The notes: generated by a model from the sequence alone, not told the origin. A stretch of DNA of 49,272 nt from Rotaria socialis (GCA_905331485.1 CAJNYT010000219.1:1-49272); one strand, 5' to 3'. Counted from the first letter of the stretch, positions 1,797 to 27,778 are shown. Program-made: numbers and translations.

Positions 1797-2172
1797 GATA
1801 CATATATATTCAAGCCATTACACTAAATATGAATATGTTGTTTTCTATTTTTAGATATTTAGATACATTTGATATTGATTTGTTTCGTTGTAGTGAAGAC
1901 TGGCTCAAAAATACTTCTATTTGCTATGACATCATTAATATTCAAAAGTACTGGTAGATAATACTAACTAAATACTTTACATACCCTCGACTCATGATTA
2001 AGTCAAGCGAATTCTTTTTTATTCTAATCGGATAGAGCCGATTACTGACTATTCAATCGACTGATACTACAAGATAATCATCTAGTATCTGAATTGATCT
2101 TATTCATGAAATGTGGCAAGCAGCACCAGTCACCAAAAATTGTCACAATGTCTTCTTTGATTCATGTTACTT

Positions 2173-2771
2173 ACGAGGGAGGATCACCAGCTGTTCAATC
2201 CCTTTTGCATTGAAACTATTTACATTATGTAGCTCCCAAGGAGTTATGGATACGCTGAAAATATTTTGGGCGGACAGTTTGTTGTTATGAAAATAGTCCA
2301 TCTTAAAGGTATGGTTTTTAATGAGTACCTGGACTCCCCTCAGGAACCTTGAAAAAAATTGATTTTTGAATTTCGACTTGAAACTTTACATAGAAATACA
2401 CCTCAACAAGAATAGTGTTTTGTGAATGTTTTTGGTCAGTGAATTTGTTTGTTTCATAAAATCTGCTACCTTATTTAAAAGATGTAAAATAAAAATTTCA
2501 TAATAGCTGTGTGTACTGATAGGATATCGTAGAATGGTCTGAAACGGCCACGAAACACTATTCTCGTTAAGGCATATTTCTATGTAAATTTTCAAGGTTC
2601 CTGAGCGGAGTTCAGGCACTCACTAAAAACCATACCTTACAAATGGGCTATTTTCGTAACAACAAGCCATCCACCCAAAATATTTTCAGTGTATCCATAA
2701 CTCCTTGGGAGCTACATAATGCAAATATTTTCAACGCAAAAGCGATTGAACAGTTGGTGACCTTCCCTCGT
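2173..2771. repeat. Fold-back (long imperfect inverted repeat), arms 2173-2424 and 2549-2771, loop about 124 bp
   Basis: The reverse complement of 2549-2771 aligns by eye with 2173-2424 at roughly 85 percent (for example gttcaatcccttttgcattgaaac / gttcaatcgcttttgcgttgaaaa, and tgtagctcccaaggagttatggatac in both). The left arm has an extra insertion of about 30 bp. Confidence 0.85.
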
Positions 2772-3267
2772 TAGATATAATTATTTTCTGTAACATAAAG
2801 TTAGACAAGTAAGTAATCATTCATAAGCAGTAACAAATTGTTTTCATGACACACTTGCCAAAAAAGTCCATAGTGGTCCATAGAGTATGATTAAAAAGAA
2901 TAAGTAAATGAGCATTAATTGAATACATGGATATCGACTATTATCTAGATGTGATACATATCGGATGATGCATAAAGAATTATTCCTGTTGTGTTTTTGG
3001 TATTTTTCCTGTATTATCCTGTTAAGTCAAAATTTCTTTTAATCAAAGATAACACTTGCAATTCTACAAAAAATTAAGTAGCCTATTTAATTAATATATA
3101 TATAGCTTCTTCCATTTTACTGGATTCACATCAATTGTACAGTTAGATCGAATATAAAATGTAAATTTCTTATTTTTCTCTTTTTCTCACGACAGACTAT
3201 ATTTCGTCTACCGATGTTGCCGTTGTGATAGCATGATCTCAATAGATAGCTTCAATCAATTAATTCT

Positions 3268-3328
3268 AGGGTATGCGTGTCGGTGTAGATGTTATTTAGT
3301 TATTTTTGCACAATCACACCCACACCCT
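3268..3328. repeat. Inverted telomeric-repeat junction (degenerate G-arm, spacer, C-arm)
   Basis: G-arm agggtatgcgtgtcggtgtag (3268-3288); C-arm cacacccacaccct (3315-3328). Confidence 0.7.
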
Positions 3329-3360
3329 CAAGAAGTTAAGAAAAAGATGTTTAATAATTT

Positions 3361-3555
3361 CTAAGTTTTGCTCGTCAAAGCTTTGCTCGCATGTTGAATG
3401 TTCTTCTTAACTTTAATGATTGCGTGATGATTGTCTTCAAATGTTTTGTGGTAAATAAGCAAAGCTTTTAAAAAACAATGGAAGGTTTGCGGATAGTTTC
3501 CAGTTGAAAAATGAATACTTCCTGTATTGTTGTAAATAAAATCAATAACAGGGCC
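3361..3555 (-). pseudogene. 3-prime terminal fragment (last 64 codons plus stop) of a TPR-protein gene, truncated at a telomeric tract
   Basis: The minus-strand translation VIDFIYNNTGSIHFSTGNYPQTFHCFLKALLIYHKTFEDNHHAIIKVKKNIQHASKAL aligns with the C-terminus of the ART-TPR protein at 25833-27707 (ATYNNIGSVYLCKGDYAKALENFEIALNIGLKSLPADHEHIQTYRENIKHAKERI). Upstream of this point the ORF is only a translation of the telomeric hairpin at 3559-3620. Confidence 0.7.
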
Positions 3556-3558
3556 TTG

Positions 3559-3620
3559 AGGGTGTGGGGTGTACATATATTTATCACCTATAAATACACA
3601 TCCACACCCACACCCACACC
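3559..3620. repeat. Inverted telomeric-repeat junction
   Basis: G-arm agggtgtggggtgt (3559-3572), 23-bp AT-rich spacer, C-arm acacatccacacccacacccacacc (3596-3620). Confidence 0.85.
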
Positions 3621-4127
3621 AACGATAAAAAAGGATATATAACTGTATAAATTTATCAAACAAGACTCGATGTAATACCATTTGTGTCTGAAACTGTTTT
3701 TACTTTTTTCAGAGAGCTCATATTCTAACCAAGTTTACCATTGTAAATGGTAATTAGCAACAAAGTTTAATAAGGTTATGCCATACATGGTTTTACTCAT
3801 CGATTCAAATAGTTCTCTCTCTCTCTCAAGTTAGATTAGGAAGTTCTTCTGATTAGAATTTGACTTTCTGCGTCGATTTGTACAAGCAGATTTTTCTATA
3901 GCACATAATTAGTTTCAAGTAGTACCGTTTGATCGCTCTTGGGTGTTCCTGTATTAATGGTTTTGAGCGGAACACAAATCAACATTCACATCTACAACCC
4001 ATTCGAAATATTTACAAGCCCTGTTGTTTTTTTTTGTGAAGTTTATAATAGAGGTCAATAACGACGAAAACATCACACACACAATCTTGTTTATTTAAAT
4101 CTTAATAATGTAGATTCTGGTGGGGGT

Positions 4128-4156
4128 TCTTTTCACGCATACCCTCCCCCCCCCCC
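4128..4156. repeat. G5 ... C11 homopolymer inverted pair (same G-first polarity as the telomeric junctions)
   Basis: ggtggggg ttcttttcacgcatacc ctccccccccccc. The C run of 11 is at 4146-4156. It is followed by (CT)n at about 4184-4200. Confidence 0.7.
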
Positions 4157-4279
4157 ACTAAACCCTAAATTTCTGTCTCCCCGTCTCTCTCTCTCTCTCT
4201 GTGTTGTCGATAAATCAATATGTAGTCTTGTTTTTAACAGTAGCATCCAGTCAAAACTAGTGTGATAGTATTTCGGTGA

Positions 4280-5362
4280 TCAAATTGATCTATCTATTAC
4301 TTGGTTGTTTCTTGGGCCTGTACCTATCAGCACCACAGGAATGCCTGTTTCACGTTCCATCATTTCTATATACTGCTTGGATTTTTCTGAAAGCTGATCA
4401 TATTGTGTGATACCAGCATCATCATAGTTGATATACTGTATGAAGTTAACTGCCAATTTGTTAACACCTGTCAGTTTCACTGCACGTTTGATACGATTCA
4501 CATCAATTTCAAATACCCGTCGTAATTTCTTAGTAACAGTTGTTAATTCTTTCGAAGAAAATGTCCCAATAGGGGCACCTGCTCGTTGTTCTACTTCTTC
4601 CCATGTGATTTCTTTTCCACCATCCCCTGAATATGCTTCACCTCCATCAGATTTAGCCATGTCATTAGAAATACGAATTGGATATGTACGAATGACACCA
4701 TAGATATCTCGAATATGTTTCGGAGGAATACCGTTATCTGAAAGTCCTTGCATTGGTGAACATTCTCTGCTGGTACAATGTGGATATTGAAAACCATGAT
4801 TAATACCTAATTCAAAACCTTGTGCTATTTCTAAAATACCTGTTTTTCCTTGTTCCAAATCATCGCAAGCCATTTCAGCTGTGTCTGCCAAAAAATTCGA
4901 CCACTCTCGAATGTCATGCATTAATTTATGATCTGGATGCCGCATTACTTTGAATGCACTAGCTGCACCAACACCTTTAAATGTACTTCCAGAGCGTATA
5001 TTCTCCTTTTCCCAATCACGATGTGTTTGTTGGATAACCGATGCTCTTGGATGAATAAAAAGACGGCCTTTTGCTTTTTCTTTGCCGCCAAGATACTGAT
5101 CAACTTCATTTTCAAGCTGTACCAAATCGATAACAGCGCCAGCACCTATATATAATTTCGTACTATCATTAATTAACGCTTGTGGCAACTGTTGGAAAAC
5201 ATATTTGGTGCCATCTTGTTTTATTACCGTATGACCTGCTTGTACACCATAGCTTTCAATAGCAAAATCATATTTGTGCTTTGTAGCTAAATATCCACCA
5301 ATAAGTCCTTTCCCGCACGATCCAAAGCAGAGATCAAGAATAATATCCAACGATCGTTCCAT
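4280..5362 (-). CDS. Adenylosuccinate synthetase family protein, short form (360 aa), PurA/PurZ-like, intronless
   Basis: Uninterrupted ATG..TGA ORF. By-eye alignment to E. coli PurA (query / PurA):
- LDLCFGSCGKG / LGTQWGDEGKGK (P-loop)
- QAGHT / NAGHT
- GSTFKGVG / GTTGRGIG
- EIAQGFELGINHGFQYPHCTS / [21 protein letters not shown]
- TTVTKKLRR / ATTGRRRR
- IGTGPR / ISTGPD
The P-loop Asp is replaced (GSCGKG). The TKLD guanine-specificity motif aligns to NFIQ. Confidence 0.85.
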   Translation of the reverse strand: MERSLDIILDLCFGSCGKGLIGGYLATKHKYDFAIESYGVQAGHTVIKQDGTKYVFQQLPQALINDSTKLYIGAGAVIDLVQLENEVDQYLGGKEKAKGRLFIHPRASVIQQTHRDWEKENIRSGSTFKGVGAASAFKVMRHPDHKLMHDIREWSNFLADTAEMACDDLEQGKTGILEIAQGFELGINHGFQYPHCTSRECSPMQGLSDNGIPPKHIRDIYGVIRTYPIRISNDMAKSDGGEAYSGDGGKEITWEEVEQRAGAPIGTFSSKELTTVTKKLRRVFEIDVNRIKRAVKLTGVNKLAVNFIQYINYDDAGITQYDQLSEKSKQYIEMMERETGIPVVLIGTGPRNNQVIDRSI

Positions 5363-5819
5363 CTGAATGCGTACCTAAAGTTGAACAAATATACATCATA
5401 TCATATAACAACAGCTATAGTGTTATTATGTGTGTACAATTGTTCTAAATAACAACGTATGATACAATACGAATGAATTCAAGTCGTAACCATTTTTCAT
5501 TATACAAAGCATTGATTGAGAGCTCTCATGTTAGTCATTTAAAAGTATCCAATTTAAAAAATAATGGTCTAAGATGATTACAAGGTAACTAAACAGATCT
5601 ATGTTTTTCTATAGGTTTCATAGGGCCTATTAGGATCTGCTAGAATCAAGCAGAGTCTAAAGGCTCGATTAAACTTCATAGAATCAACTAGCGCCCTCAT
5701 TATATGGATTCTATCTGAGGCTTTCGTGATCCCCTCACCCTAGAGATAATATATGTTGTCTTCTCTTCCATCCTCGTTCTGAAGAGTATTACAGACTCTA
5801 GCAAACCCTGTTAGATCCT

Positions 5820-5829
5820 GGGGGGGGGG
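5820..5829. repeat. G10 homopolymer, inverted partner of the C11 run at 4146-4156
   Basis: cctgggggggggga. Together with 4146-4156 it brackets the PurA-like ORF as 5-prime Cn ... Gn 3-prime. Confidence 0.7.
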
Positions 5830-6470
5830 ACTATTATGACTTATTACATAAATTATATAGAATAGAATTGTTATGGAGTTTATTTGTGCCATTCAGTGAA
5901 AACCAATCTAGAAGCTAATCCCATACGTCACAGCCATCTCATCAGTTTTAATCCAAACAGAAATAAAGCTAAGACGACGAATAATATGAAAACCACAAAG
6001 CTATTTGCATGTAAATATATTACTTTAGAAGCAGTCTCGCGCTTCCCATCTCTACTATGTTTAAAATTATGATATCATCTTTCCGCTGAAAGTTGTTTTG
6101 CAGATTTTTATTGATGCATTTCAAGCAAAAGAAACATTTTTTTTAAAAAGGAATACAAACTGGGTACTATGAAAAGAAAAGTAATCCTACATTTTCTTGT
6201 TATTTCTCGTAAATTCGTTTTGATAACTAGTGTTTTGTCTTCACCTAGCTTGTATCTTTGCTAGACGTTGACATACCTCTTCGTTTGTTCTTTCGGTAGG
6301 AAGCACCTTTATATATATATATAAGTCGATATCTTGGAAATTTTCAGTATATCTACAAAACAAGGGAAAAAATCATGGCTATAATATGGATGGTATTGGC
6401 CAGCCCAGTGCTGGATCAATGTTTATTTATTTTATTTCTTTATGTCACTCTCATCATAATCAATTAGGTA

Positions 6471-6850
6471 TCCGTATCACCAATATCAGTAACTTTATTT
6501 TTATATTTAATTAGACGGGCAATTTTCTTACTCATCGCATTTACCTATTCTTTTTCTTCTTCTCCATTAATAGACAAATATACTATATGTCTTTTACTTT
6601 TACTGACCGAAAACACAACACATGTAACATATGTTATTCGATGTCTATACAGATAATGAGGATAGAAATGCAAAAAAAAGAGAAAGAATTGGGGAATATA
6701 TGCTATCAATTGGGACACTTTCTCTTCTTTTCTCTAGTATATGTGTCTATTAATGGAGAACAAGAAAAATAATAGGTAAATACGATGAGTAAGAAAGTTG
6801 CACCATCATATTAAATAAGAACAAGAAAATTACTGATATAAGCGATACGG
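6471..6850. repeat. Fold-back inverted repeat, arms about 6471-6586 and 6735-6850, spacer about 148 bp, abutting the telomeric junction at 6864
   Basis: The reverse complement of the right arm (tccgtatcgcttatatcagtaatttt...cttactcatcgtatttacctattatttttcttgttctccattaatagacacatatacta) matches the left arm (tccgtatcaccaatatcagtaacttt...cttactcatcgcatttacctattctttttcttcttctccattaatagacaaatatacta). Confidence 0.8.
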
Positions 6851-6863
6851 ACATTTTATCACT

Positions 6864-6958
6864 GGGCGTGGGTGTGGGTGTGTGGATGAAGCAGAGAATA
6901 TGCAACACCCACACCCACACCCACACCCACACCCACACCCACACCCACACCCACACCC
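6864..6958. repeat. Inverted telomeric-repeat junction with the longest tract, (ACACCC)9
   Basis: G-arm gggcgtgggtgtgggtgtgtgga (6864-6886), 18-bp spacer, then nine perfect ACACCC units (6905-6958). Confidence 0.95.
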
Positions 6959-7575: not shown

Positions 7576-9954
7576 TTAGACTTCTTTAAATAATATTCCG
7601 TAGGGTCGAACATTCTGTGAATTGTTACACGTCCATATATCTCGATTGTGCTTTGCGATCGAACTATTATTAATTCTCACTTGAAACATAACTTGCAATT
7701 GTCGGCCATTGTATGGTGTTGGCCTAGAGTAGTGTCTACTCCCGGAATATGATGGATTAGGCGATAAATATATGCCTCGACCATGAGCAGAACCATTAAC
7801 AATAGGTATCCCATTACTACCTCCAGCAATTAAACCATTACGTAGTATAGCTAAAGCATTGGCAGTTGCAGTACCATGATAAGCTACAGGCCATGCATCT
7901 TTGCCCTCCGCTAGCCATTCAGCATTTTCATATTTTCCAAGTACTTTAATAGCCTTTCTATACCATCCGCATGGCCTTGTATAAGGTTCTGGTCCACGTT
8001 GAAAAGTTCGACCGGCATCATTTCTTGTTGTAAAATCGTAGTCGTAAGTGCTATCAAGAAACTCTTCATCTAGCATAACACGATTTACAAAACGATTAGT
8101 CCGAGCAGTAGCACTTGAAAAATGTGGAATATAAGCTGCAATTGAACTCTGATTGTATTGATAAAATCGAACGTTTTGATCATCTTCCCATCGATTTATA
8201 TCATTATCAATATTCCAATAACTTAATCGAATACTTTCAGGACATGTATATTCAGATGGTTCATTTATTATTAATAGTGGACAATGCTCTTTTTTATCAC
8301 TAAATTGAATATGATCAGCTTTGAAATGAATAACTGATATAATTCGATTATAATTTTCTTCTAATGTTCCTTTGTCCGGTACATAATCTTCGTTTTTCCA
8401 TACAGTATTTGGTAAGGATTTACTTACTACGGACTTTGATTCTGATTCTTGTGCTATTTTATATTCCATTATTCGAGAAGAATAATACATAACAGCATTA
8501 CTTTCATACATATCAGCCTTTTCACACTGAGGACACTTTATTTTTACAGTAGAATTAGACTCTTGTTTAATGGTTGATGTTAGTTTATCATTTAATCTTT
8601 TACAGCACTGGTAACAAAATAAAGCTGAACAATTTGGATTAAGACATAATCTATGTTTTTCAGGTATTAAACGACAATATAAACATTCTAAAGCCGAAGT
8701 TCCTTCCATTTCAAATTTATCAATAATTTTTGATTTACGGTATTCTGATAATCGAACTTTCTTGTAACATGTTGGACAATGATGTTCATGATTTGTATTA
8801 TCACAACTGGATTCAATACAAATGCGACAAAATACTTGTGTACAATATGGGCATTCTAAATTATCATCATTAAGTTGTGATAAACAATTTAGACATTCAG
8901 GTTTATCTATGAAAATTAATGAAGATGTTGACGGTTTATTAATTAAAGTAGCTGAATTAAAATCCGTTTCAACTGCTTGTGCTAAATTAGTTTCATTGGA
9001 TGGCGTTTCTTTTTTTGAGGATATAATTGGATTTGACTGAGTAGGATTTATTTTCTTAATGTTAACTTTATCAATCTGATTATTCAATTCATTGATTTTT
9101 GTTGATATCTTCATCCAATTGCATGATGATTTTAAATTATCGATCAAGAAATCGTTGCTCCCAATAGAAATTGTTGTTGATTTTTTATTTCCAATTGTTT
9201 GTTTTGCTTGCTGGGCGGATTTAATCACATTGATGGTCTCAACTGGAAACATTAAAATAATTGTATTATTATCCAATCGAGCTTCACATTCATAATTTAT
9301 TATAGCAAATTTATCCTTATTGATGTCTGAAACTTTTTGACAGCGATCACTAGGTTGGACTGCATTAATCTGAGATGACCCTATATCTCCGTCGACGATA
9401 GTATCAGGCTGAATATTAAATTTTAATTGAACAATAGAACCAGGATTAATTCCTAAATCCAACATTGGAATATATGCATTTTTATTTAATGAGTAATATT
9501 TTCCATTAGCCATAATTCCTTGCGCATAGCGACCGTCGCAACATCTTACTTTACAAAATTGAGATAACAATAAACGATCATAGGGTAATGCTATTAATAA
9601 TGGATAATCATATATTTGGACTGATTTGAACATGGCCGTTTTTATTAATTTAATATGTGACACGTCAGCATTAGCTGAAATGAATATTTTTTCTAGTAAT
9701 TCAAAGTAATTTTCTACATTCATTGTAATTTTTTCTGATAAATGATTAGTTTGAATCATTTTACCAATATGTTGACATAATTTATTATATCTGAGTGGAT
9801 GAATTAATTGGGACGAAGGAATAATTCCCATTTTAATTTCAGTTATTGGCCAATATCTGAGATCTTGATCTTTACTAACAGCGCTAATAGGTTTATTATA
9901 ATCAGAATTTTCACTTTCTAATTGATTAGTGTTATCGGCAATTAAATGAAACAT
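7576..9954 (-). CDS. 792-aa protein: two Cys/His zinc-finger modules (RING/IBR-like) plus a C-terminal ADP-ribosyltransferase-fold (H-Y type, PARP/NEURL4-like) domain
   Basis: Single uninterrupted ORF starting at ATG.
- Zinc modules: CLNCLSQLNDDNLECPYCTQVFCRICIESSCDNTNHEHHCPTCYKK and CLYCRLIPEKHRLCLNPNCSALFCYQCCKRL...KCPQCEK.
- C-terminus: RPCGWYRKAIKVLGKYENAEWLAEGKDAWPVAYHGTATANALAILRNGL...AHGRGIYLSPNPSYS...VRPYGILFKEV. This shows the His (xYHGT) and Tyr (GxGIYxS) signatures of the PARP-type ART fold. Confidence 0.65.
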   Translation of the reverse strand: MFHLIADNTNQLESENSDYNKPISAVSKDQDLRYWPITEIKMGIIPSSQLIHPLRYNKLCQHIGKMIQTNHLSEKITMNVENYFELLEKIFISANADVSHIKLIKTAMFKSVQIYDYPLLIALPYDRLLLSQFCKVRCCDGRYAQGIMANGKYYSLNKNAYIPMLDLGINPGSIVQLKFNIQPDTIVDGDIGSSQINAVQPSDRCQKVSDINKDKFAIINYECEARLDNNTIILMFPVETINVIKSAQQAKQTIGNKKSTTISIGSNDFLIDNLKSSCNWMKISTKINELNNQIDKVNIKKINPTQSNPIISSKKETPSNETNLAQAVETDFNSATLINKPSTSSLIFIDKPECLNCLSQLNDDNLECPYCTQVFCRICIESSCDNTNHEHHCPTCYKKVRLSEYRKSKIIDKFEMEGTSALECLYCRLIPEKHRLCLNPNCSALFCYQCCKRLNDKLTSTIKQESNSTVKIKCPQCEKADMYESNAVMYYSSRIMEYKIAQESESKSVVSKSLPNTVWKNEDYVPDKGTLEENYNRIISVIHFKADHIQFSDKKEHCPLLIINEPSEYTCPESIRLSYWNIDNDINRWEDDQNVRFYQYNQSSIAAYIPHFSSATARTNRFVNRVMLDEEFLDSTYDYDFTTRNDAGRTFQRGPEPYTRPCGWYRKAIKVLGKYENAEWLAEGKDAWPVAYHGTATANALAILRNGLIAGGSNGIPIVNGSAHGRGIYLSPNPSYSGSRHYSRPTPYNGRQLQVMFQVRINNSSIAKHNRDIWTCNNSQNVRPYGILFKEV

Positions 9955-10688: not shown

Positions 10689-11449
10689 TTTTTATTCGTT
10701 CGTAGGCAGAAAATCTGAAATTGTAGTCAAACTATAAAAGTAATACTAACATCGGATTAACTATAAAAATTTTGTGCTAATGATTCGAACAGAAACTCTT
10801 CTAATCGTCGTCCTTCTTCTATCTTAAGAAATTAAAAGACAAAAAGACCGCTTGATAACAGATAAAGAAGAATATTAAAATAAATAGAAGGATGTTTTCA
10901 TATTATCTAATCATTGCTGCTAGATCCTAATAGATATATTTGGCATTTGAATAGATAATTTTAACTTGTGTTCAATATCATATAACACTGTTGTATGGAA
11001 AAAATTTTTATTGCCAACGAAAAATCGTCAACCCACTTGTTTGAACAAGAATTTAAATATTTCAATTTTTTATTGTAGTGTTTTTTATGGGTCACCCTGT
11101 ATATAAACGAAACGAAAAGAAAAATGTAATATGAATCATTACTAACAACAAGAGACATGAAGAGAAACTCAAGGACACGCATATATAGTGAAATCTATAA
11201 TAAAGAAAGTACCAATAGTCTCCTCTGAACACAGTACAGATCATAACTATCTAATATAGATGAATAAATTATGAATATATCAGTGGCTGGCATGTGTAAG
11301 ATTTGCATAACTTGATGCAACCTAATTCACATATTCTTCAGTTCTATCTGAGTCGATTGAATGTAAAAGCTTTTCAGAATAAAGTAAAAATCATGCCAAC
11401 TTTAAAAAATTATTTCCTATGTAATGTTAACTGGCTGTCTCTTGTTTCA

Positions 11450-11508
11450 GCGGATGTGGATGTGTGTGCGCTATCTTTAACCCAGCCTACGCCCACACCC
11501 ACACACCC
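11450..11508. repeat. Inverted telomeric-repeat junction
   Basis: G-arm gcggatgtggatgtgtgtgcg (11450-11470), spacer, C-arm cgcccacacccacacaccc (11490-11508). Confidence 0.8.
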
Positions 11509-11542
11509 TTATGATACTTGACGTCTCTTATTGATCCTTGTA

Positions 11543-12551
11543 TTAGAGATCTGAGCTACGTAAACTCCAGAGTTTAATTATCCATTTGTTTGCGATTTCA
11601 TCAAAGTGGCACGATGTTACCTTAGCAGGAAAACCATCGAAAATCAAAAGTTCTTGTTCATCCGGATAATTTGAATATGGGGACATATCCAGAGAGCCGG
11701 TATCTTTTTCGAGGTCAATGACAAAAAGAAAGTTGCTGCCAAAGAATTCGGCCACGTTCGGATTAAGAGTAGTTGAGGTAAACGCCGGTAATTGGATTTT
11801 TCTTTCAGAGACAACGCATAGTCGAAATTGTTCAATTTGTTCGTTAGTCATCGTTGCTCCTCGATATACTATCATATTAGTGGGAGTAAAATTCATAGCT
11901 GAATTCAATAGTACAGCAAATGGGCCGTTTGGCCATCCATTCACCTTCTCGTTGCTTCCCCACCTTTTTCGCTTCGATTATAAATCCTTCCGCTGCCTTT
12001 TCTATCCACATCTCAAGTACTGACTGACAAGTGATACCTTTCTCCCAACCAACGCCGTAATGAGAACAAGCTTCTTGAACAAAATCAGGAGTTGTTGGTT
12101 CAATTTGCCAGTTTATGAAACTGTTCGAAGGCAAAACTGAATCTTCCAAGAAACGTTCCGCTCTTACTCGTTTCTCTCGTTCATCCTTGTTACGATCAAC
12201 TATACGTTTCACTGGCCGTTGTTTCTTTTCGTCATTATTAGAGATTTGCATAGAACGTGCAAAAACGATATGATAGTCGTCGAGAAGAGCTTCTGGTAAG
12301 CCTTGTTGGAATGCTTCTTCGATGATTTCAGTTTCTACATCGGTGTATTTTCGCCATTCAGCAGGTTCTGCAAAACAGAAAGGAAGCGCATTAGATTGCC
12401 ACAGCCACTCTATATACTGCTTGGCAATCAATGCAGTAGTAGTCATATACGCAACGACCAAACGGTAGCAGTAAAGATTAGATGTGATAGTAAAAAGAAA
12501 GAAAATGAAAGATATATTTCGTTTCATTATTGACTCTTTTTGTTGTTCCAT
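11543..12551 (-). CDS. WWE domain plus R-S-E (arginine-type) mono-ADP-ribosyltransferase, 2 exons (12551-11945, 11898-11543)
   Basis: - N-terminal part: YIEWLWQSNALPFCFAEPAEWRKYTDVETEIIEEAFQQG...YHIVFARSMQISNNDEKKQRPVKR matches the WWE pattern (W-W...W-x-Y...E-x-A...Q...R-x-V-K-R).
- C-terminal part: VYRG (Arg), FTSTT (STS) and PDEQELL (ExE) ART motifs.
- The two ORFs overlap in different frames. A 46-nt GTGAAT...TTCAG intron (11899-11944) joins them in phase, giving 963 nt = 320 aa. Confidence 0.8.
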
Positions 12552-12797
12552 TCTGTGGCTGGAAGAAAGAAAAAAAAGAAAGGAAATGAAAGGAAATGAA
12601 AGGAAAGAAAAGAAGGAGACAATGTTGGTTAACTTCTGTTATGACACGTCTATAAGCTGTGTCATAAGATGAAAGGTATCACCCAAATATCTTGAGGATG
12701 TGTATAGTAAACAGAGACGTGCACAGGATATAATTTTTTCTCCTGCTCTTGCCTGTCCTGTTACCTACCTTGGTTCTGGTGGGCGGCAGGACAGGAG

Positions 12798-13510: not shown

Positions 13511-14461
13511 AGAGACCGTCACAGGGCAGGGCAAAAGTTTTTGCCCTGCGCCCTGATAATTTTTCCTATAAACTGATATACAGCATATTTTTCAGTAGAT
13601 TATGCTGACATGGTGATGGATTATAATGTATGTCATTATGCGCCAGTCACTGTGAAATTTGTTACTATGTCTAGTTCGGACAATACCAGTTTACTCATTT
13701 ATTATCATATAATTCAATTATAAAAATAAAATACTGCTTCTAAGAGAAATGCAAAACATGGTAGAATCATTTAATATTGTATAAGAGAACGAGCTAATTT
13801 AAGAATTATGTGTATGATGAGCTTTTTTTCTAAATGATTTCAGACATGAGCTTAGTATTCCAGAGGAAATTTCACTTGAAGATTCAACATGTTCTAATGG
13901 TAACTTTCTTCGCATGTTTTAGTTTTGTATGCTTAGTTCTCTATGTTTTAAATTATTTTCACTTGATATGAACTCGCCCGGTTTTACAAAATTAGAAGAT
14001 CTCTTATTTCATGATAAATCTTACCGCCCCATAATACACAATGAATCTCTTGCTACTGGTACATTTTGAAGAGTCTTTATTTACCCAGCACGATGAGTTG
14101 AGGAGAATACATGTGAAAGATTTACTTGATTTCTCACTTATTCAAATTATGTACATATTCAATCGCCAGATCACGATAAGCGCATTATTTTTGCAGTGAA
14201 CTGATTTTTGTGATAATCTTAATTGCTGTTTGCTACTCATACTTAATTATGTTTTCAGCGCATATCTATATTTTCTCGAATATAGATAAATAAAAATACG
14301 AGTACTTTACTTTTCAGCGGTTACAACATTTTCATTTAGTCTTTACCTTTTTCAATATTTCAGTTCAATTTATAATCACGCCCTGTCCTGCCCTGAGACA
14401 GGGCAGGATATAGCAGGGCGCAGGGCAGGACAGGGCAAAAAGTTGCCCTGTGACGATCTCT
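13511..14461. mobile_element. Non-autonomous element of about 950 bp with GC-rich CAGGGC-palindromic terminal inverted repeats, apparently inserted into the telomeric C-arm
   Basis: The left end is agagaccgtcacagggcagggcaaaagtttttgccctgcgccctg. The reverse complement of the right end is agagatcgtcacagggcaactttttgccctgtcctgccctgcgccctg. The interior is AT-rich with no ORF. C-strand telomeric sequence lies on both sides (..cacccacacc | element | gatccacaccc). Confidence 0.65.
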
Positions 14462-16377: not shown

Positions 16378-17900
16378 ATGCAGCTGGTCGATTTACTTGA
16401 TGAGTTAATTTTAATTATCATGTACAAAGTGAAACCTAAAGTGTTATTGCTTTGTTCTACTATCACTATTGATAATAATCGTTTAGCAAAACTTGCACTT
16501 GATATGTATCATTCAATTGATTTAACTTTTAAGTATTTTCAATCACCATATCAATTTATTATTCCACGTTTTTACACACATTTTATGCCTTGTATCATTA
16601 ATAATATTCAACTTACACATTAGGTAAACTATGATTAACTATCGCTTTAGTTCATTTTCTACTTATAAAATAAGATAAATTCTTATTTTTTCAGAATTAA
16701 AAAAAAAGAACTCTACTTTAAATATAGAAGATTCAAGTGGCTTTTTAGGAACATTTAAGCAGAAAAGATGTGAGACTTTTTTAAGTATTCATTGCGATAA
16801 AAACTTTATGATCAAAATTGTGTTCCTTAAAAATCTTATATTTCGATCATAATACATTTAAAAAGAAGGAACCATTAGATGATATGCTAGTCTACTAGCC
16901 TCCTATCTCTGACCAGAATATGAGCTTTAAACATTATAATAACCTGGTTGATTCTTCTTCTCCTTAGATATTCCTAAAAAACAACTCGAATCTTCTGTAT
17001 TTCGAGTGGAAGTCGACAAAAACCTTTTCCAAAAAAATGGTTGAATACCGATGATTTTACCCTTCTGATAAAATCTATACTTAGGAAAACATTGATATTT
17101 GTATATATTATTAGGCAATAACCTTTACTGTGTTTCGCGGTGTTTTACTCTCTTCTCAAATATACCTCAATTTTCTGTACGTACTGGATAAGAGCAATAC
17201 TGCTCGCACTTGATCTAAATTCTTTTGTTCACTATCTGTGTCTTCTATTGTATCTTTCGAATTGGATGATGATTGTATTTTAAAAAATATATTTTAAAAT
17301 GGCGATGATTTAATTTTTCCTGAATCAATCCATCTGACTCTTATTCGAATAATATTATTTGAATTCGAACGTTGCATTTTTTTACTTAATCAATTGGGCT
17401 CATAATTATGTTCATTCGTTGTAAGTGTGTGGTGTTTGTTTCTGCATCAGATGTTGGTATTTTTTCTAAAATTAAATCAGTAAGCAATATTTAGTAATTG
17501 CAAATCTCATTTAATTAATTCATAAAGATTTCATGTCCTAATTTGAAACGATTGGCAATGAAAATTTGTTTCTTCCTGTTTTACAATGTTGATCAAATTT
17601 CGAATATTTAATATTATTATTAGCTATTGAATTCAAAAGAAATACACCCAAACGTTTTATTGATGGATTTGATTTGGATAAACACATTATTTTATGCATG
17701 CCTCATTTATGTCAATTTCATATTCGTTCAATATTACCAAATGCTGCTCATGTAGAAATCGAGAATGAACTTGAGCGACAAGAAAAAATAGAAACGACAA
17801 CAAATAATCTTGAATTTACTCATTTAACTACTCTGATTTTATTTGATATTCATTTGGATTATGCTGAACAATTACTTTGTCGAAGCCATTTTCCTTCTCT
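16378..17900 (+). pseudogene. Decayed F-box-like / leucine-rich gene
   Basis: - ORF 16378-16623 begins LVDLLDELILIIMYKVKPKVLLLCSTITIDNNRLAKLALD (F-box-like LxxLPDEILxxIF...N-x-R-L pattern).
- ORF 17674-17916 ends ...LEFTHLTTLILFDIHLDYAEQLLCRSHFPSLI.
- The 1 kb between them has leucine-rich stretches in several frames, interrupted by stops. Confidence 0.35.
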
Positions 17901-18885: not shown

Positions 18886-19505
18886 TTCTCAATAGCATAT
18901 GAGCGCATGCGGTAAGTCTTTTTCCTGAAAAACTCTTCCACTCATTCTCTGCAAATGGCACTTGTACTTTTCCGCGGCACAATCAAACACATCATTTAGT
19001 ACGAGCAATGTCGTAATCAGTTTTCCTTCCCGTTTCGCCATATTTCAGTCCATGAGCATCGCGAAAAATAAAGTACGCTGAAGGATGGACTAGTAGACGT
19101 TTTGATTGTAAACGATCAGTATTATTCATGTATAGAAAACGATTTTAGAGAATATTAATTATGCTGAATATTTACTTATAAACAATCAAAAGCACAACGA
19201 AACCTTGTCAAACCGTTTTCTATACATGAATAATACTGATCGTTTACAATCAAAACGTATAATAGTCCATCCTTCAGCGTACTCTATTTTTCGCGATGCT
19301 CATCGACTGAAATATGGTGAAACTGGAAGGAAAACGGATTCCGACATTGAAACATGTAAATGGAATAATATGTTTTTGAACGCTGCTCGTGCTAAATGAT
19401 GCGTTTGATTGTGCCACTGAAAACTACAAGCGTCAATTGCAGAGAATGAGTCGAAGAGTTTTTCAGAAAAAAGGCTTACCATATACGCTCATATGCTGCT
19501 GAGAA
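18886..19505. repeat. Long imperfect palindrome, arms 18886-19142 and 19213-19505, spacer about 70 bp
   Basis: The reverse complement of the right arm matches the left arm almost throughout (ttctcagcagcatatgagcg.. / ttctcaatagcatatgagcg.. ; ..gattgtaaacgatcagtattattcatgtatagaaaacg in both). The right arm carries an extra segment of about 35 bp. Confidence 0.9.
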
Positions 19506-20126
19506 GCATGCAAAATACAAGGAGGCCTATTATTTTTGTCTGTCCATTATAAGAGTGATTTATAAGCAGCTACGTAAAGAACATGATATATTTTTTCACC
19601 TTAGGCAAATATTAGTTTTGGCTCATGACGCGAACTTTCGAAATGTTTTATTAATATTTCACAATACGTATTTTTGATGACGTCATTACTCTGAATAACA
19701 GATGAGATATGTTTTAATCACAGTCAAGTTATTAGAATTTTCAACGTTGTTTTAACAAAAAATACGTCTAAGTGATATAGGTAAAGTTAGCACCAAATTC
19801 GGTTATTTTTTGTCCGGATTAGCTCAAGAACGTGCGTTCGATGTAAAATTAAATTCTACGTCGAATTGCATTATTTTCAATAGTGGTCATCGAGCAAGAA
19901 AAGGGGCTCAGGATGAAATACTAGAGTTCGGGTGCACGATACCATAATCTTGATAGGCATTATTGAAGTTGGTCAAAAGATTTCAATCGCCACATAGGGT
20001 TGGACCGTTTGTTAGCTATAATATGTATAGAATGAAAGAAAGATATAAGGAATGAAAGAGGGATATATAGAGAGTGAAAGAGACAAGCAGTGTCACTGAT
20101 GTTATGTGACAGAACGAAGAAAAATA

Positions 20127-20198
20127 TGACCTTCATGGAGATCGAACCCATACCTTCTGCTATCCAGGCAGATGTCCTACCAGTTAGACTAGAAGAAC
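20127..20198 (-). tRNA. tRNA-like sequence (probable tRNA pseudogene or tRNA-derived element), nominal anticodon GGA
   Basis: Minus strand: GTTCTTC TA GTCT AACTGGTA GGAC A TCTGC CTGGATA GCAGA AGGT ATGGG TTCGATC TCCAT GAAGGTC A. The cloverleaf is drawable and has A-box-like and B-box-like (GGTTCGATC) motifs. Anomalies: a U2-U71 mismatch, G53-U61 in place of G-C, a pyrimidine at position 37, and a Ser anticodon without the long variable arm. Confidence 0.3.
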
Positions 20199-24861: not shown

Positions 24862-24954
24862 TGGGTGTGGGTGTGAGATGTGGGCGGGCATAATTTTGAT
24901 TGTGCGTACATGAGACAATAGAATAATATTCATACCCACAACCACACCCACACC
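24862..24954. repeat. Inverted telomeric-repeat junction
   Basis: G-arm tgggtgtgggtgtgagatgtgggcggg, 45-bp spacer, C-arm acccacaaccacacccacacc. Confidence 0.85.
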
Positions 24955-25438
24955 GATTTAACCATAAACTCGCTGATGGAATTAGTTAGGCATTCTTTTT
25001 TGAAATTATATTTATTTCAAAGCAAATTTTGAAATTATTATTTTGTTGTCAGGTAGGACGATTATTGAAACTCTAGAGTTAAGACTAACAGATTGATTTA
25101 TATGAAAGACATACGGATAGGAATTCACTAGTACAGTCGGACTGGTACACCCACCTTCAATCTCATCCCCAGTCTGACCCTTCGAGTGGGGAACCCAAAA
25201 CGGTCCCGTTCCGGATGGGACTGAATTCGGAACCAAAAAATAATTTTTTGTGGAACCGGGACTAAATACTTTTTTAGTCAGTCCCGAGCAAATTTTTTAA
25301 AGAAAAAAAATCGTCTATAGTACTTGGTTCTTTTATTTTCAAGAAGTAATTTCACTATTTTCCCTTTCATATATTTTATAATACAAGAAAATCTTCACAA
25401 ATAAATATTCAAAATTTTAAAACAACACGATAAACTTG

Positions 25439-25495
25439 AGGGTGTGGGTGTAGACTGAATTAAAAACAGCGTATCCACATCGACACCCACACCCA
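25439..25495. repeat. Inverted telomeric-repeat junction
   Basis: G-arm agggtgtgggtgt, 21-bp spacer, C-arm atccacatcgacacccacaccc. Confidence 0.85.
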
Positions 25496-25832: not shown

Positions 25833-27707
25833 ATGACTTCATTAACGAAAAATCTTGAAGGTCTGACTATTGTATGGCTTGATGTTGATCGTATTCATCA
25901 AAACACCGATGATTATTTTGATACGAAAAATCGTCTACGACAATGCAATAATTATATAGAAATATATCATGATCCAAATGAGTGTATTCATGGTATAATA
26001 GCGAATGGATACGTTTTTCTAATCGTTTCTGGTTCAATCTGCGAAACATTTATTCCGCTGATTTTTGAAATCAAACAGATCGTATTTATTTACGTTCTAT
26101 ATTCGGATAATCAATTGACGGACACCTGTGAACTAAAAACTATTTCAAAACTTCATGGAATATTCTCAAGTAAAAACCAACTTATTGAAAAACTGAAACA
26201 AGACGTCAAATCATATTTGAAGAGTTTGCCACTAACATGTATCGTCAATGAAAAGTCAATTCGTGCTTTAAACAAAGAATATTCTACGTTTATGTGGACT
26301 CAATTGCTTATGGACGTTTTAATTCAAATACCTCAAACAGATCGTGCAAAAATGATGATGTTAGAAGATTGCCGATTGCATTATGCTGATAATAAAGCTC
26401 AATTAGATGATATTAACGAGTTTCAAGAAAAATATGAACCAGACTTTGCAGTTTGGTGGTATACACGTGAGAGTTTCGCATATAAACAATTAAACCAAGC
26501 ACTACGTACACAAGATATTGACATTATTTTTAAATATCAATTTTTTATAAGAGATCTTTATGTACTATTGAAAGAATTATATGAAGAATCTATGCCATCC
26601 TTAGAAGAAATATCGATTGTCTACCGTGGCCAACATATCAATTGTGATGAATTGGAAAAAATAAAAAATAATGTGAACGGTCTTATTTCAATGAATTCAT
26701 TTTTATCAACAACTCGAAACAAGAATCGAGCTTTAATATCCGCCGGTGATGGTTCAAATAGGCCCTCGCTTGAATCCATCTTATTTGAAATTACGATTAA
26801 TAAAAATGTTGCTGCTAAAACTAAACCATTCGCTGACATTACAAAGATGAGTCAATTTGGCAAGGCAGAAGAAGAAATACTATTATCGATTGGAAGTATA
26901 TTCAAGATTCAGTCAGTTGAACAGTTAGCTGAAAATGCTCATGTTTGGGACGTTAAGCTAATATTAAATGAATCAGTGGTGATTAATGAAATAGACATGT
27001 TATTCAATTATTTCAAAATGAATTCAACTACAAGTATATCGAATGTCGGTACATTAGGTTTACTATTAGGAGAGATGGGAGAATATGAAAAAGCGGAAAA
27101 ATATTATCAAATGATGCTTGATGAATTATCAACAGATCATTGCGGAGTTCCAATAATATTAAATAATATGGGAGTATTATACAATGATATGGGTAATGAT
27201 GAAAAAGCATTAGAATATTATAAGAAATCATACGAAAGTTATAAAATGCAAAACGTATCAGAAAATGATCTTCTCTTAGCGAATTTATATCATAATATGG
27301 GTTCATTGTATTATGAAAATGAGTATAATAAAACAGCATTGAAATATTTTAAAAAAGCTTTTAAAATTTGTAATAATAATTCTACGCTACCCAGTCTTTT
27401 ATTATCTGCAACATTATATACAGACGTGAGTGGAATATATCAAGATAATGAAGATTCTGTTAATGCATTGGATCAGTTGCAACACACATTTGAAATCCAA
27501 AAAAGAATTCTACCATCAACTCATTTCAGAATCGCTGCAACATACAATAACATAGGAAGTGTTTATCTTTGTAAAGGAGATTATGCAAAAGCATTAGAAA
27601 ACTTTGAAATAGCCTTGAATATTGGATTAAAATCTTTGCCAGCCGATCATGAACATATTCAAACATATCGTGAAAATATAAAACATGCTAAAGAAAGAAT
27701 AAAGTAA
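25833..27707 (+). CDS. 624-aa R-S-E ADP-ribosyltransferase domain protein with C-terminal TPR repeats
   Basis: Single ATG..TAA ORF.
- ART motifs: VYRGQ (Arg), FLSTT (STS), GKAEEEILL (ExE).
- C-terminal third: repeated TPR-type units (NNMGVLYNDMGNDEKALEYYKKS, YHNMGSLYYENEYNKTALKYFKKA, YNNIGSVYLCKGDYAKALENFEIA).
- An AATAAA at 27698-27703 overlaps the end of the ORF. Confidence 0.85.
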   Translation: MTSLTKNLEGLTIVWLDVDRIHQNTDDYFDTKNRLRQCNNYIEIYHDPNECIHGIIANGYVFLIVSGSICETFIPLIFEIKQIVFIYVLYSDNQLTDTCELKTISKLHGIFSSKNQLIEKLKQDVKSYLKSLPLTCIVNEKSIRALNKEYSTFMWTQLLMDVLIQIPQTDRAKMMMLEDCRLHYADNKAQLDDINEFQEKYEPDFAVWWYTRESFAYKQLNQALRTQDIDIIFKYQFFIRDLYVLLKELYEESMPSLEEISIVYRGQHINCDELEKIKNNVNGLISMNSFLSTTRNKNRALISAGDGSNRPSLESILFEITINKNVAAKTKPFADITKMSQFGKAEEEILLSIGSIFKIQSVEQLAENAHVWDVKLILNESVVINEIDMLFNYFKMNSTTSISNVGTLGLLLGEMGEYEKAEKYYQMMLDELSTDHCGVPIILNNMGVLYNDMGNDEKALEYYKKSYESYKMQNVSENDLLLANLYHNMGSLYYENEYNKTALKYFKKAFKICNNNSTLPSLLLSATLYTDVSGIYQDNEDSVNALDQLQHTFEIQKRILPSTHFRIAATYNNIGSVYLCKGDYAKALENFEIALNIGLKSLPADHEHIQTYRENIKHAKERIK

Positions 27708-27722
27708 TCGAATATTAATAAT

Positions 27723-27778
27723 GGGGTGTGTGGTGTGGGTGTGGATATGATCCAGACTGGAAAATTCACCCACACCCA
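27723..27778. repeat. Inverted telomeric-repeat junction starting 15 nt after the ART-TPR stop codon
   Basis: G-arm ggggtgtgtggtgtgggtgtgga, 21-bp spacer, C-arm cacccacaccca. Confidence 0.9.

Follow-up and report, generated by a model that had tools for sequence, protein, structure and literature searches.

Two putative kinds of telomere-associated scar around a truncated ART-TPR gene in a subtelomere-like region of Rotaria socialis

The chromosome ends of bdelloid rotifers are fast-evolving mosaics sprinkled with telomere repeats and, to our knowledge, bdelloids carry more foreign genes than any other animal. Rotaria socialis is a bdelloid that is not known to tolerate desiccation. TGTGGG is the telomere repeat published for bdelloids (PMC7943196, PMC8494291). 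In these animals, short telomeric stretches occur beside foreign-looking or repetitive genes and TPR proteins (PMC2861651), subtelomeric regions carry telomeric repeats and are prone to rearrangement (PMC8494291), and telomeric repeats have been found at deletion breakpoints of Adineta vaga (PMC13564844). Terminons, which also reside in rotifers, form chains in which host genes are captured between units and copies are 5'-truncated by telomeric repeats (PMC6431247). Outside rotifers, human cancer genomes contain a defined class of neotelomere fusions, or inward (TTAGGG)n-(CCCTAA)n fusions (PMC11293586), and short telomeric insertions, some of them with deletions, are present at repaired double-strand breaks of primates, rodents and horse (PMC7215372).

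Here we analyzed positions 3315-3620 of a 49,272-nucleotide stretch of R. socialis DNA, hereafter the window, using the sister species R. magnacalcarata as reference. We propose that this region is a subtelomere-like part of the R. socialis genome that carries two kinds of telomerase-associated scar; these are probably a neotelomere fusion on the right and a deletion scar on the left, both arising from breakage and telomere addition. An earlier note on the same DNA had read the region differently, as a 230-bp gene fragment capped on both sides by telomeric repeats.

The locus shares with the bdelloid subtelomeres and neotelomeres described to date the same TGTGGG repeat and a similar setting, in which TPR, repetitive and foreign-looking genes abound. 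In contrast to those reports, the R. socialis events are resolved to the base through comparison with the sister species, and the tracts come as facing pairs instead of lying beside Athena elements. As in the fusions of cancer genomes, two ends that telomere addition appears to have healed are joined so that their G strands face each other, with short tracts at the fusion point; however, those fusions are somatic and belong to tumours, whereas the R. socialis junction is germline-fixed, shows no difference among the R. socialis assemblies that span it, and belongs to a set of nine such junctions in 49 kb. The left tract recalls the mammalian insertions, in that a few repeat units are found at a site that is 'empty' in a related locus, together with a deletion and in-register bases (the native GGGTGTG). 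It differs from them in its length of only 9 nt and in beginning with the variant unit TGAGGG, and the 'empty' locus may be a paralogue.

Window positions 3100-3900 are 100% identical in contigs of five different assemblies, which makes an assembly chimera very unlikely, and the ART-TPR and adenylosuccinate synthetase (AdSS) proteins of the window have identical sequences in NCBI assemblies labelled Rotaria socialis by their sources. We note that the contigs of five assemblies all stop within ~200 bp of window position 1, and that the repeat scan detected no telomere repeats in the first 400 bases of the window; a long repeat or a chromosome end probably lies just past it. The R. socialis assemblies also vary structurally elsewhere. 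Differences were seen at L004 1-1768, L001 1-1689 and L002 2880-3947: one assembly has positions 10870-12637 inverted beside 17596, another has a duplicated 17498-17731, and a third is rearranged around 18955-19824.

Telomere-like sequence is strongly over-represented in the window. With one mismatch allowed, the 12-mer CACACCCACACC occurs 37 times in the 49 kb, as compared to 0.03 expected from shuffles, and the repeat unit of the tracts, TGTGGG/CCCACA, is the organism's own telomeric repeat according to the published bdelloid sequence. When two arms lie close to each other, their order is G-then-C in 9 of 9 pairs and C-then-G in none, as seen in the repeat scan, with arm lengths that range from 12 to 54 nt. 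Within 3315-3620 the scan identified a C-type tract on the plus strand at 3315-3327 (CACACCCACACCC), a G-type tract at 3560-3572 (GGGTGTGGGGTGT) and a second C-type tract at 3597-3620 (CACATCCACACCCACACCCACACC). These three tracts span 13-24 nt, which is far too short for working telomeres, and they were either eroded before fusion or joined almost at once. The length of a given arm also varies: it is 54 nt at window positions 6904-6957, 36 nt in another R. socialis assembly (L019 6677-6712) and 12 nt in R. magnacalcarata (L016 212-223), indicating that the repeat number is unstable or has been collapsed in short-read assemblies.

The starts of some arms are themselves alike. Three copies of the 13-mer CTTGAGGGTGTGG are present in the window (0.00 expected), at 3320-3332 on the minus strand and at 3555-3567 and 25435-25447 on the plus strand, each time at the start of an arm. 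Two of these copies thus lie in inverted orientation at the two ends of the TPR stump, where they produce the perfect 14-nt inverted repeat CCCACACCCTCAAG / CTTGAGGGTGTGGG (3319-3332 / 3555-3568) returned by the repeat search. A related start, TGAGGGTGTGG, begins an arm in R. magnacalcarata (L020 5541-5551). By contrast, a direct repeat between 3309-3354 and 3597-3642 (72%) was discarded as merely two C arms with A-rich flanks.

The sequence between the left tract and the right junction holds the end of a protein-coding gene on the minus strand. An open frame runs over 3364-3558, with the product ...PVIDFIYNNTGSIHFSTGNYPQTFHCFLKALLIYHKTFEDNHHAIIKVKKNIQHASKALTSKT, and is closed by a TAG stop codon at 3361-3363 in the ORF list. 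Taken together, BLASTP, Pfam, phmmer and cross-species alignment place in 3364-3552 the 63 terminal codons of a gene of the ART-TPR family, comprising the final TPR unit and the C-terminal tail. The stump matches the C-terminus of the 624-residue ART-TPR protein encoded at 25833-27707 with 34% identity over 53 aa (E=3e-8, BLASTP), and Pfam TPR_12 with E=1e-4 and 22.9 bits, under the 30.1-bit gathering cut-off of that family. A phmmer search of 1.84 billion proteins with the stump returned 3303 TPR matches at E<=1e-3. The minus-strand tail of a TPR protein related to the ART-TPR C-terminus, as described in the earlier note, is therefore well founded, and the TPR similarity is significant in a profile search with phmmer, the TPR_12 match being sub-gathering. 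The extent given there, of 64 codons, a stop and a 32-nt trailer, requires trimming: the stop codon is confirmed, while homology supports 63 codons and, of the trailer at 3329-3360, the 30 nt of 3331-3360.

The nearest homologous locus is found in R. magnacalcarata, on contigs L012 to L015, which were aligned to the window in reverse complement; L013-L015 agree with L012. Window positions 3552-3331, which include the trailer and stop codon (3331-3363), align to L012 2133-2354 over 222 nt with no gaps and 88.3% nucleotide identity. Further downstream in the sense of the gene, 3321-2771 aligns to L012 2538-3046 (85.9%) and 2173-1948 to L012 3044-3268 (93.8%). At the protein level, the R. socialis and R. 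magnacalcarata tails are 76% identical (E=3e-33). We note that the identities of 86-88% at the TPR locus, as compared to 96.4% for the AdSS block discussed below, may mean that the R. magnacalcarata sequence used here is a close paralogue and not a strict ortholog.

This comparison indicates what is missing from the window. In L013, an uninterrupted ORF of 151 aa crosses the point equivalent to window position 3552, indicating that this position is not an exon boundary; an upstream part of the gene joined to the stump through a spliced exon, the case raised in the earlier note, becomes less likely. Two ORFs of L013 upstream of the breakpoint, 2449-2748 and 2808-3233, align to ART-TPR residues 164-267 and 308-435 (each E=5e-16), from which it follows that the stump derives from an ART-TPR family gene. 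The stump retains a TPR_12-type repeat and a C-terminal tail homologous to members of the family, and the upstream ART-domain coding sequence is present in the R. magnacalcarata homologue only, being absent from the window locus.

A word-indexed protein search with the 64-residue stump gave no match; the exhaustive phmmer search identified a relative, P0030, a 133-residue TPR protein of R. magnacalcarata whose contigs are L012 to L015; as a query, P0030 returned only its own cluster, with members all from R. magnacalcarata. Of the donor and the breakpoint that the earlier note suggested finding by alignment to paralogues, the breakpoint was placed at 3552 by alignment to R. magnacalcarata, and the protein searches yielded no donor among the annotated R. 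socialis proteins. In the absence of a close annotated R. socialis protein, the stump looks like a remnant that stayed in situ and not like the copy of a gene located elsewhere. Its dN/dS of ~0.64 points to relaxed constraint, and we propose that the 222-bp stump would be a non-functional remnant left in place. A 106-aa ORF at 3361-3681 was also considered as a gene and rejected as fortuitous, as it spans both arms and the spacer, shows no TPR similarity upstream of the break, and is uncalled in every assembly.

At the right end of the stump, homology to both L012 and L013 stops at 3552. Beyond this point R. magnacalcarata continues with TPR coding sequence, and R. socialis reads GCCTTGA (3553-3559, plus strand), seven bases that have no homologue, followed by GGGTGTGGGGTGT; in a right-justified comparison made by eye, 5 of the next 14 positions match R. 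magnacalcarata, which is the level expected by chance. Breakage and telomere addition at this end, as put forward in the earlier note, thus find clear support in an ART-TPR gene truncated at 3552 with telomere repeats from 3560, but the homology does not run exactly to the G arm at 3559 as stated there, ending 7 nt before the G tract. The seven bases may be filler. Their last three, TGA, together with the following GGG, read as a variant repeat unit, TGAGGG. Permuted and complemented, the TCACCC variant reported at some Terminon 3' ends (PMC6431247) gives this unit. Speculatively, TGAGGG may be a variant first repeat, or a copy of sequence that lies beside the telomerase template; insertions derived from telomerase RNA do occur in mammals (PMC7215372).

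The G arm at 3560-3572 (plus strand) has its G strand pointing away from the retained sequence, as would be the case for a neotelomere on the broken TPR gene. It is followed by an AT-rich spacer of 24 nt (3573-3596) with no detectable source, and then by the C tract at 3597-3620, which in the sense of the AdSS gene (minus strand) reads GGTG TGGGTGTGGGTGTGGATGTG. Aligned with what follows the AdSS breakpoint in R. magnacalcarata, the spacer scored as shuffled sequence does. We also examined the spacer as templated filler; the sole match, of 17 nt with one mismatch at 7758-7774, was reached by 8 of 300 shuffles, and this candidate was abandoned.

The sequence on the far side of the spacer is a block of 3617-6864 (minus strand) that contains the AdSS gene (4280-5362) and is the fusion partner of the TPR stump. 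Its alignment to R. magnacalcarata contig L016 (208-3155 versus window 6919-3978) shows 96.4% identity, and its neighbours differ between the two species on both sides. Both species share the sequence ...TATCGTTGGTG in AdSS sense. R. socialis then continues with TGGGTGTGGGTGTGGATGTG. R. magnacalcarata has 124 nt of unique sequence here, beyond which lie a G arm of its own, a spacer of 16 nt, a C arm and finally a radial-spoke gene. The comparison with L016 thus identifies GGTG at 3617-3620 as native and 3597-3616 as the added tract. The facing arm at 3597-3620 accordingly qualifies as a second, independent truncation with telomere addition, the AdSS block being cut where R. magnacalcarata runs on for 124 nt. 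We note that the gene at 4280-5362 encodes an adenylosuccinate synthetase and that at 28479-30007 an EryCIII-like glycosyltransferase (family 28); both are of types that are typical candidates for horizontal transfer in bdelloids.

The two sides of the right junction can be compared directly. On each of them the tract starts where homology to the unbroken R. magnacalcarata reference ends (3552 on the TPR side, 3617 on the AdSS side), and the G strands, those of 3560-3572 (plus strand, right of 3331-3552) and of 3597-3620 (minus strand, left of 3617 onward), run 5' to 3' outward from the retained DNA, as expected for healed ends. At the TPR break there is no microhomology with the repeat and the seven bases GCCTTGA intervene, while at the AdSS break the native GGTG is in register. 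The G tract and the C tract lie on one strand, 24 nt apart, and their flanks are not neighbours in R. magnacalcarata, where the TPR gene is on other contigs. Two native sequences are thus each cut and followed by a tract, and the two tracts face each other, which argues that 3553-3620 represents a head-to-head fusion of two neotelomeres with 24 nt of filler between them.

The left tract has a different character. In the sense of the gene it reads TGAGGGTGT GGGTGTG and covers 3315-3330 (minus strand), as defined by cross-species alignment and repeat scan. Its last seven bases, GGGTGTG (3315-3321), have a counterpart in R. magnacalcarata; the nine telomere-like bases TGAGGGTGT (3322-3330) stand opposite 183 bp in that species (L012 2355-2537). 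In other words, R. magnacalcarata reads 183 bp, GGGTGTG and attgtgc, and R. socialis reads TGAGGGTGT, the same GGGTGTG and attgtgc. The sequences that flank the tract are contiguous in R. magnacalcarata (L012 2133-2354 and 2538-3046), and the left flank, 1948-3321 (minus strand), is the sequence that natively lies downstream of the TPR gene. It keeps synteny with the R. magnacalcarata locus and is interrupted by a foldback insertion of ~600 bp (2174-2770). The latter has inverted arms of ~186 nt (2170-2355 / 2589-2771) that are 88% identical, and its absence from the R. magnacalcarata homologue makes it look like an R. socialis-specific, foldback or MITE-like insertion.

The contiguity of the left flank in R. 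magnacalcarata indicates that the left arm is an internal deletion scar and not the end of a cassette, and consequently that the truncated block extends at least over 1948-3552 and is not a free piece of 230 bp. The repeat scan found no facing G arm left of 3315, unlike at every true block junction in the window. Thus, the C arm that the earlier note placed at 3315-3328 is indeed present (3315-3327), but it does not terminate a cassette, its GGGTGTG being native; a fragment capped on both sides is at odds with a fragment and left flank that are contiguous in R. magnacalcarata, with 183 bp there facing 9 nt here. Regarding polarity, a 183-bp insertion in R. magnacalcarata would leave TGAGGGTGT on the gene side of the insertion, where it is absent. 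R. socialis may carry the derived state of the left scar. For the locus in general, parsimony, applied to a comparison of the two species, suggests that R. socialis is derived.

These observations suggest the following course of events. The ART-TPR gene would have been broken in the linker that precedes its last TPR unit, the sequence 5' of the break being missing from the locus, and the broken end would have gained a short TGTGGG tract. The neighbouring AdSS block would have been truncated independently at its native GGTG and would also have gained a tract. The two short neotelomeres would then have been joined head-to-head, G tract then C tract, with 24 nt of filler, and would now persist as a fixed interstitial scar. 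On the left, the 183 bp between the 3' trailer of the gene and the native GGGTGTG heptamer would have been lost, with the nine telomere-like bases TGAGGGTGT in their place; telomerase may have begun extension at this break, after which the end would have re-annealed to the heptamer across it. Breakpoints, tract orientations, loss of homology and synteny of the left flank are all observed directly. Telomerase as the maker of the tracts, end-joining or annealing as the joiner, and the order of the events are inferred. Independent healing events leave the CTTGAGGGTGTGG shared by both stump ends and 25435 unaccounted for.

Other explanations of the locus were weighed against this scheme. In a strict cassette, a free 230-bp double-stranded fragment would have been capped by telomerase at both ends and ligated between unrelated blocks. 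Its arms do form an inverted pair, the left one being C-type and the right one G-type, with the perfect inverted repeat of 14 nt (3319-3332 / 3555-3568), and every other block of the window likewise has a C arm on its left and a G arm on its right. We nevertheless consider a cassette very unlikely, given that the left flank from 3321 down to 1948 is the native downstream sequence of the gene, lying 183 bp away in R. magnacalcarata, and that the facing G arm seen at all true block junctions is missing left of 3315. Ectopic recombination between pre-existing interstitial telomere tracts could also have placed the stump beside the AdSS block, with no new telomere addition. At 6865-6957 both species keep the AdSS-side arm and spacer but have different partner blocks and partner-side arms of unequal length, a pattern that resembles an exchange of partners within an arm. 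At the locus itself, however, 3560-3572 and 3597-3616 sit where R. magnacalcarata has native, non-telomeric sequence at both positions, so that the tracts had to be created there, and recombination of this kind is a distinctly improbable source of the junction. An account by artefact or chance, in which a chimeric assembly join or low-complexity CA/TG sequence gives the appearance of a junction, could draw on the short-read scaffold of an alternative R. socialis haplotype (L019), which has Ns over part of the region, including the right junction. The identity of five assemblies over 3100-3900, the 37 matches to the 12-mer CACACCCACACC versus 0.03 expected, and breakpoints that coincide with the ends of cross-species homology all speak against it, and artefact or chance is extremely unlikely.

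Mobile elements offer two further origins for the arms. Were they derived from the (ACACCC)n found at the 3' end of Athena/Terminon RNA, a host gene fragment would have been trapped between element units. As in Terminon/Athena chains, pieces of host genes lie between telomeric stretches at rotifer chromosome ends, and a variant (TCACCC)n, whose complement contains TGAGGG, is reported at Terminon 3' ends (PMC6431247). Such a capture is nonetheless highly improbable here: no hammerhead ribozyme was found in the window at Rfam gathering thresholds or at E<=1, scans of the called genes and of 10 of the 28 ORFs of at least 100 aa gave no reverse-transcriptase domain, and addition by a retroelement predicts head-to-tail repeats in one orientation, whereas the arms here are inverted and face each other. 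Rfam scans of the window returned only one tRNA and sub-threshold hairpin look-alikes at arm pairs. Telomere-bearing elements are known in ciliates, comparable to a DNA transposon with telomere-like terminal inverted repeats, and the 14-nt perfect inverted repeat of the stump does reach 6 nt past the canonical repeat. The probability of a transposon is almost negligible, however, as there is no transposase and no target-site duplication (flanks ...cacaat and acatat...), neither internal nor subterminal sequence is common to the blocks, the arms measure anywhere from 12 to 54 nt, and the interior is a truncated host gene that is contiguous with the outside flank.

Breakage with telomere addition, the reading that we favour, can also be compared with other block boundaries of the window. 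Homology of the ART-TPR block starts at 24955-24956, immediately after a C arm (24937-24954), and at the other end a G arm lies 16 nt past the stop codon of the gene (27724-27744); it is absent in R. magnacalcarata, where native sequence continues. At the far end of the AdSS block, marked by the arm pair 6865-6882 / 6904-6957, the AdSS-side arm and spacer (within 6865-6957) are conserved between the species and the partner block differs. The arm pair 25441/25482 is kept in both species, indicating an old junction. R. magnacalcarata in turn has a mini-block of its own, of 268 bp, cut at the equivalent of window position 32330 and followed by GGGGTGTGGGTGT; it lies on L017 (134-401) with a C arm of 94 nt on one side and a G arm on the other, and its right part matches window 32486-32330. 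From sequence comparison, this mini-block appears to be the R. magnacalcarata counterpart of the TPR-type stump. Since these boundaries behave alike, breakage, capping and re-joining seem to be recurrent in this region in both lineages. The wider idea of the earlier note, that blocks bounded by telomeric tracts are reshuffled, is upheld in that four further boundaries compared with R. magnacalcarata agree with it.

Additional features of the window were recorded. A tRNA gene is predicted at 20127-20198 (minus strand; 49 bits, Rfam), and its surroundings (window 20063-20175; L020 15253-15365) are upstream of the ART-TPR gene in R. socialis and downstream of it in R. magnacalcarata, a switch of side that indicates another block rearrangement. 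The WWE-ART gene (11547-12450, minus strand) has a G-type tract, in gene sense, at 11492-11508, ~40 nt past its stop codon. A G-type tract close to the stop is thus found in two other ART-family genes, the tract at 27724-27744 being specific to R. socialis. The arm pair 39773-39826 is enclosed by a ~2174-aa gene model (PARP-VIT-VWA-EF-hand) with its start near 33101, and an EF-hand ORF (39978-40337) lies just past it; either this pair is intronic, or the gene model merges two blocks. Finally, sub-threshold Rfam matches to microRNA precursors at 42559-42669 and 14373-14443 coincide on the two strands, and therefore probably mark hairpins that are nearly perfect palindromes and have no relation to the telomere arms.

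By itself, the stump of 230 bp is a pseudogene remnant of an ordinary sort, and short telomeric tracts and neotelomeres have already been described in bdelloid subtelomeres; the R. socialis locus is a well-resolved new instance of them. Its value lies in a before/after comparison of sister species, resolved to the base pair, in which genes are seen to have been cut, then capped by telomere repeats, then re-joined, more than once and in the recent past. As a tentative possibility, Rotaria could possess a standing pathway that builds and reshuffles its subtelomere-like arrays, in which any DNA end gains a few repeats added by telomerase, and neotelomeres join each other or dock at interstitial tracts, the arm pairs then being seams of gene shuffling and capture in the germline of a desiccation-intolerant species. 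Such a pathway would act on the ends of very small pieces as well, and possibly on the ends of foreign DNA, and CTTGAG, which recurs ahead of the first repeat, could be a copy of telomerase RNA beside the template. The facing-pair pattern, if it holds genome-wide, would provide a testable mechanism for what has been a loose link of telomere repeats with foreign or expanded gene families.
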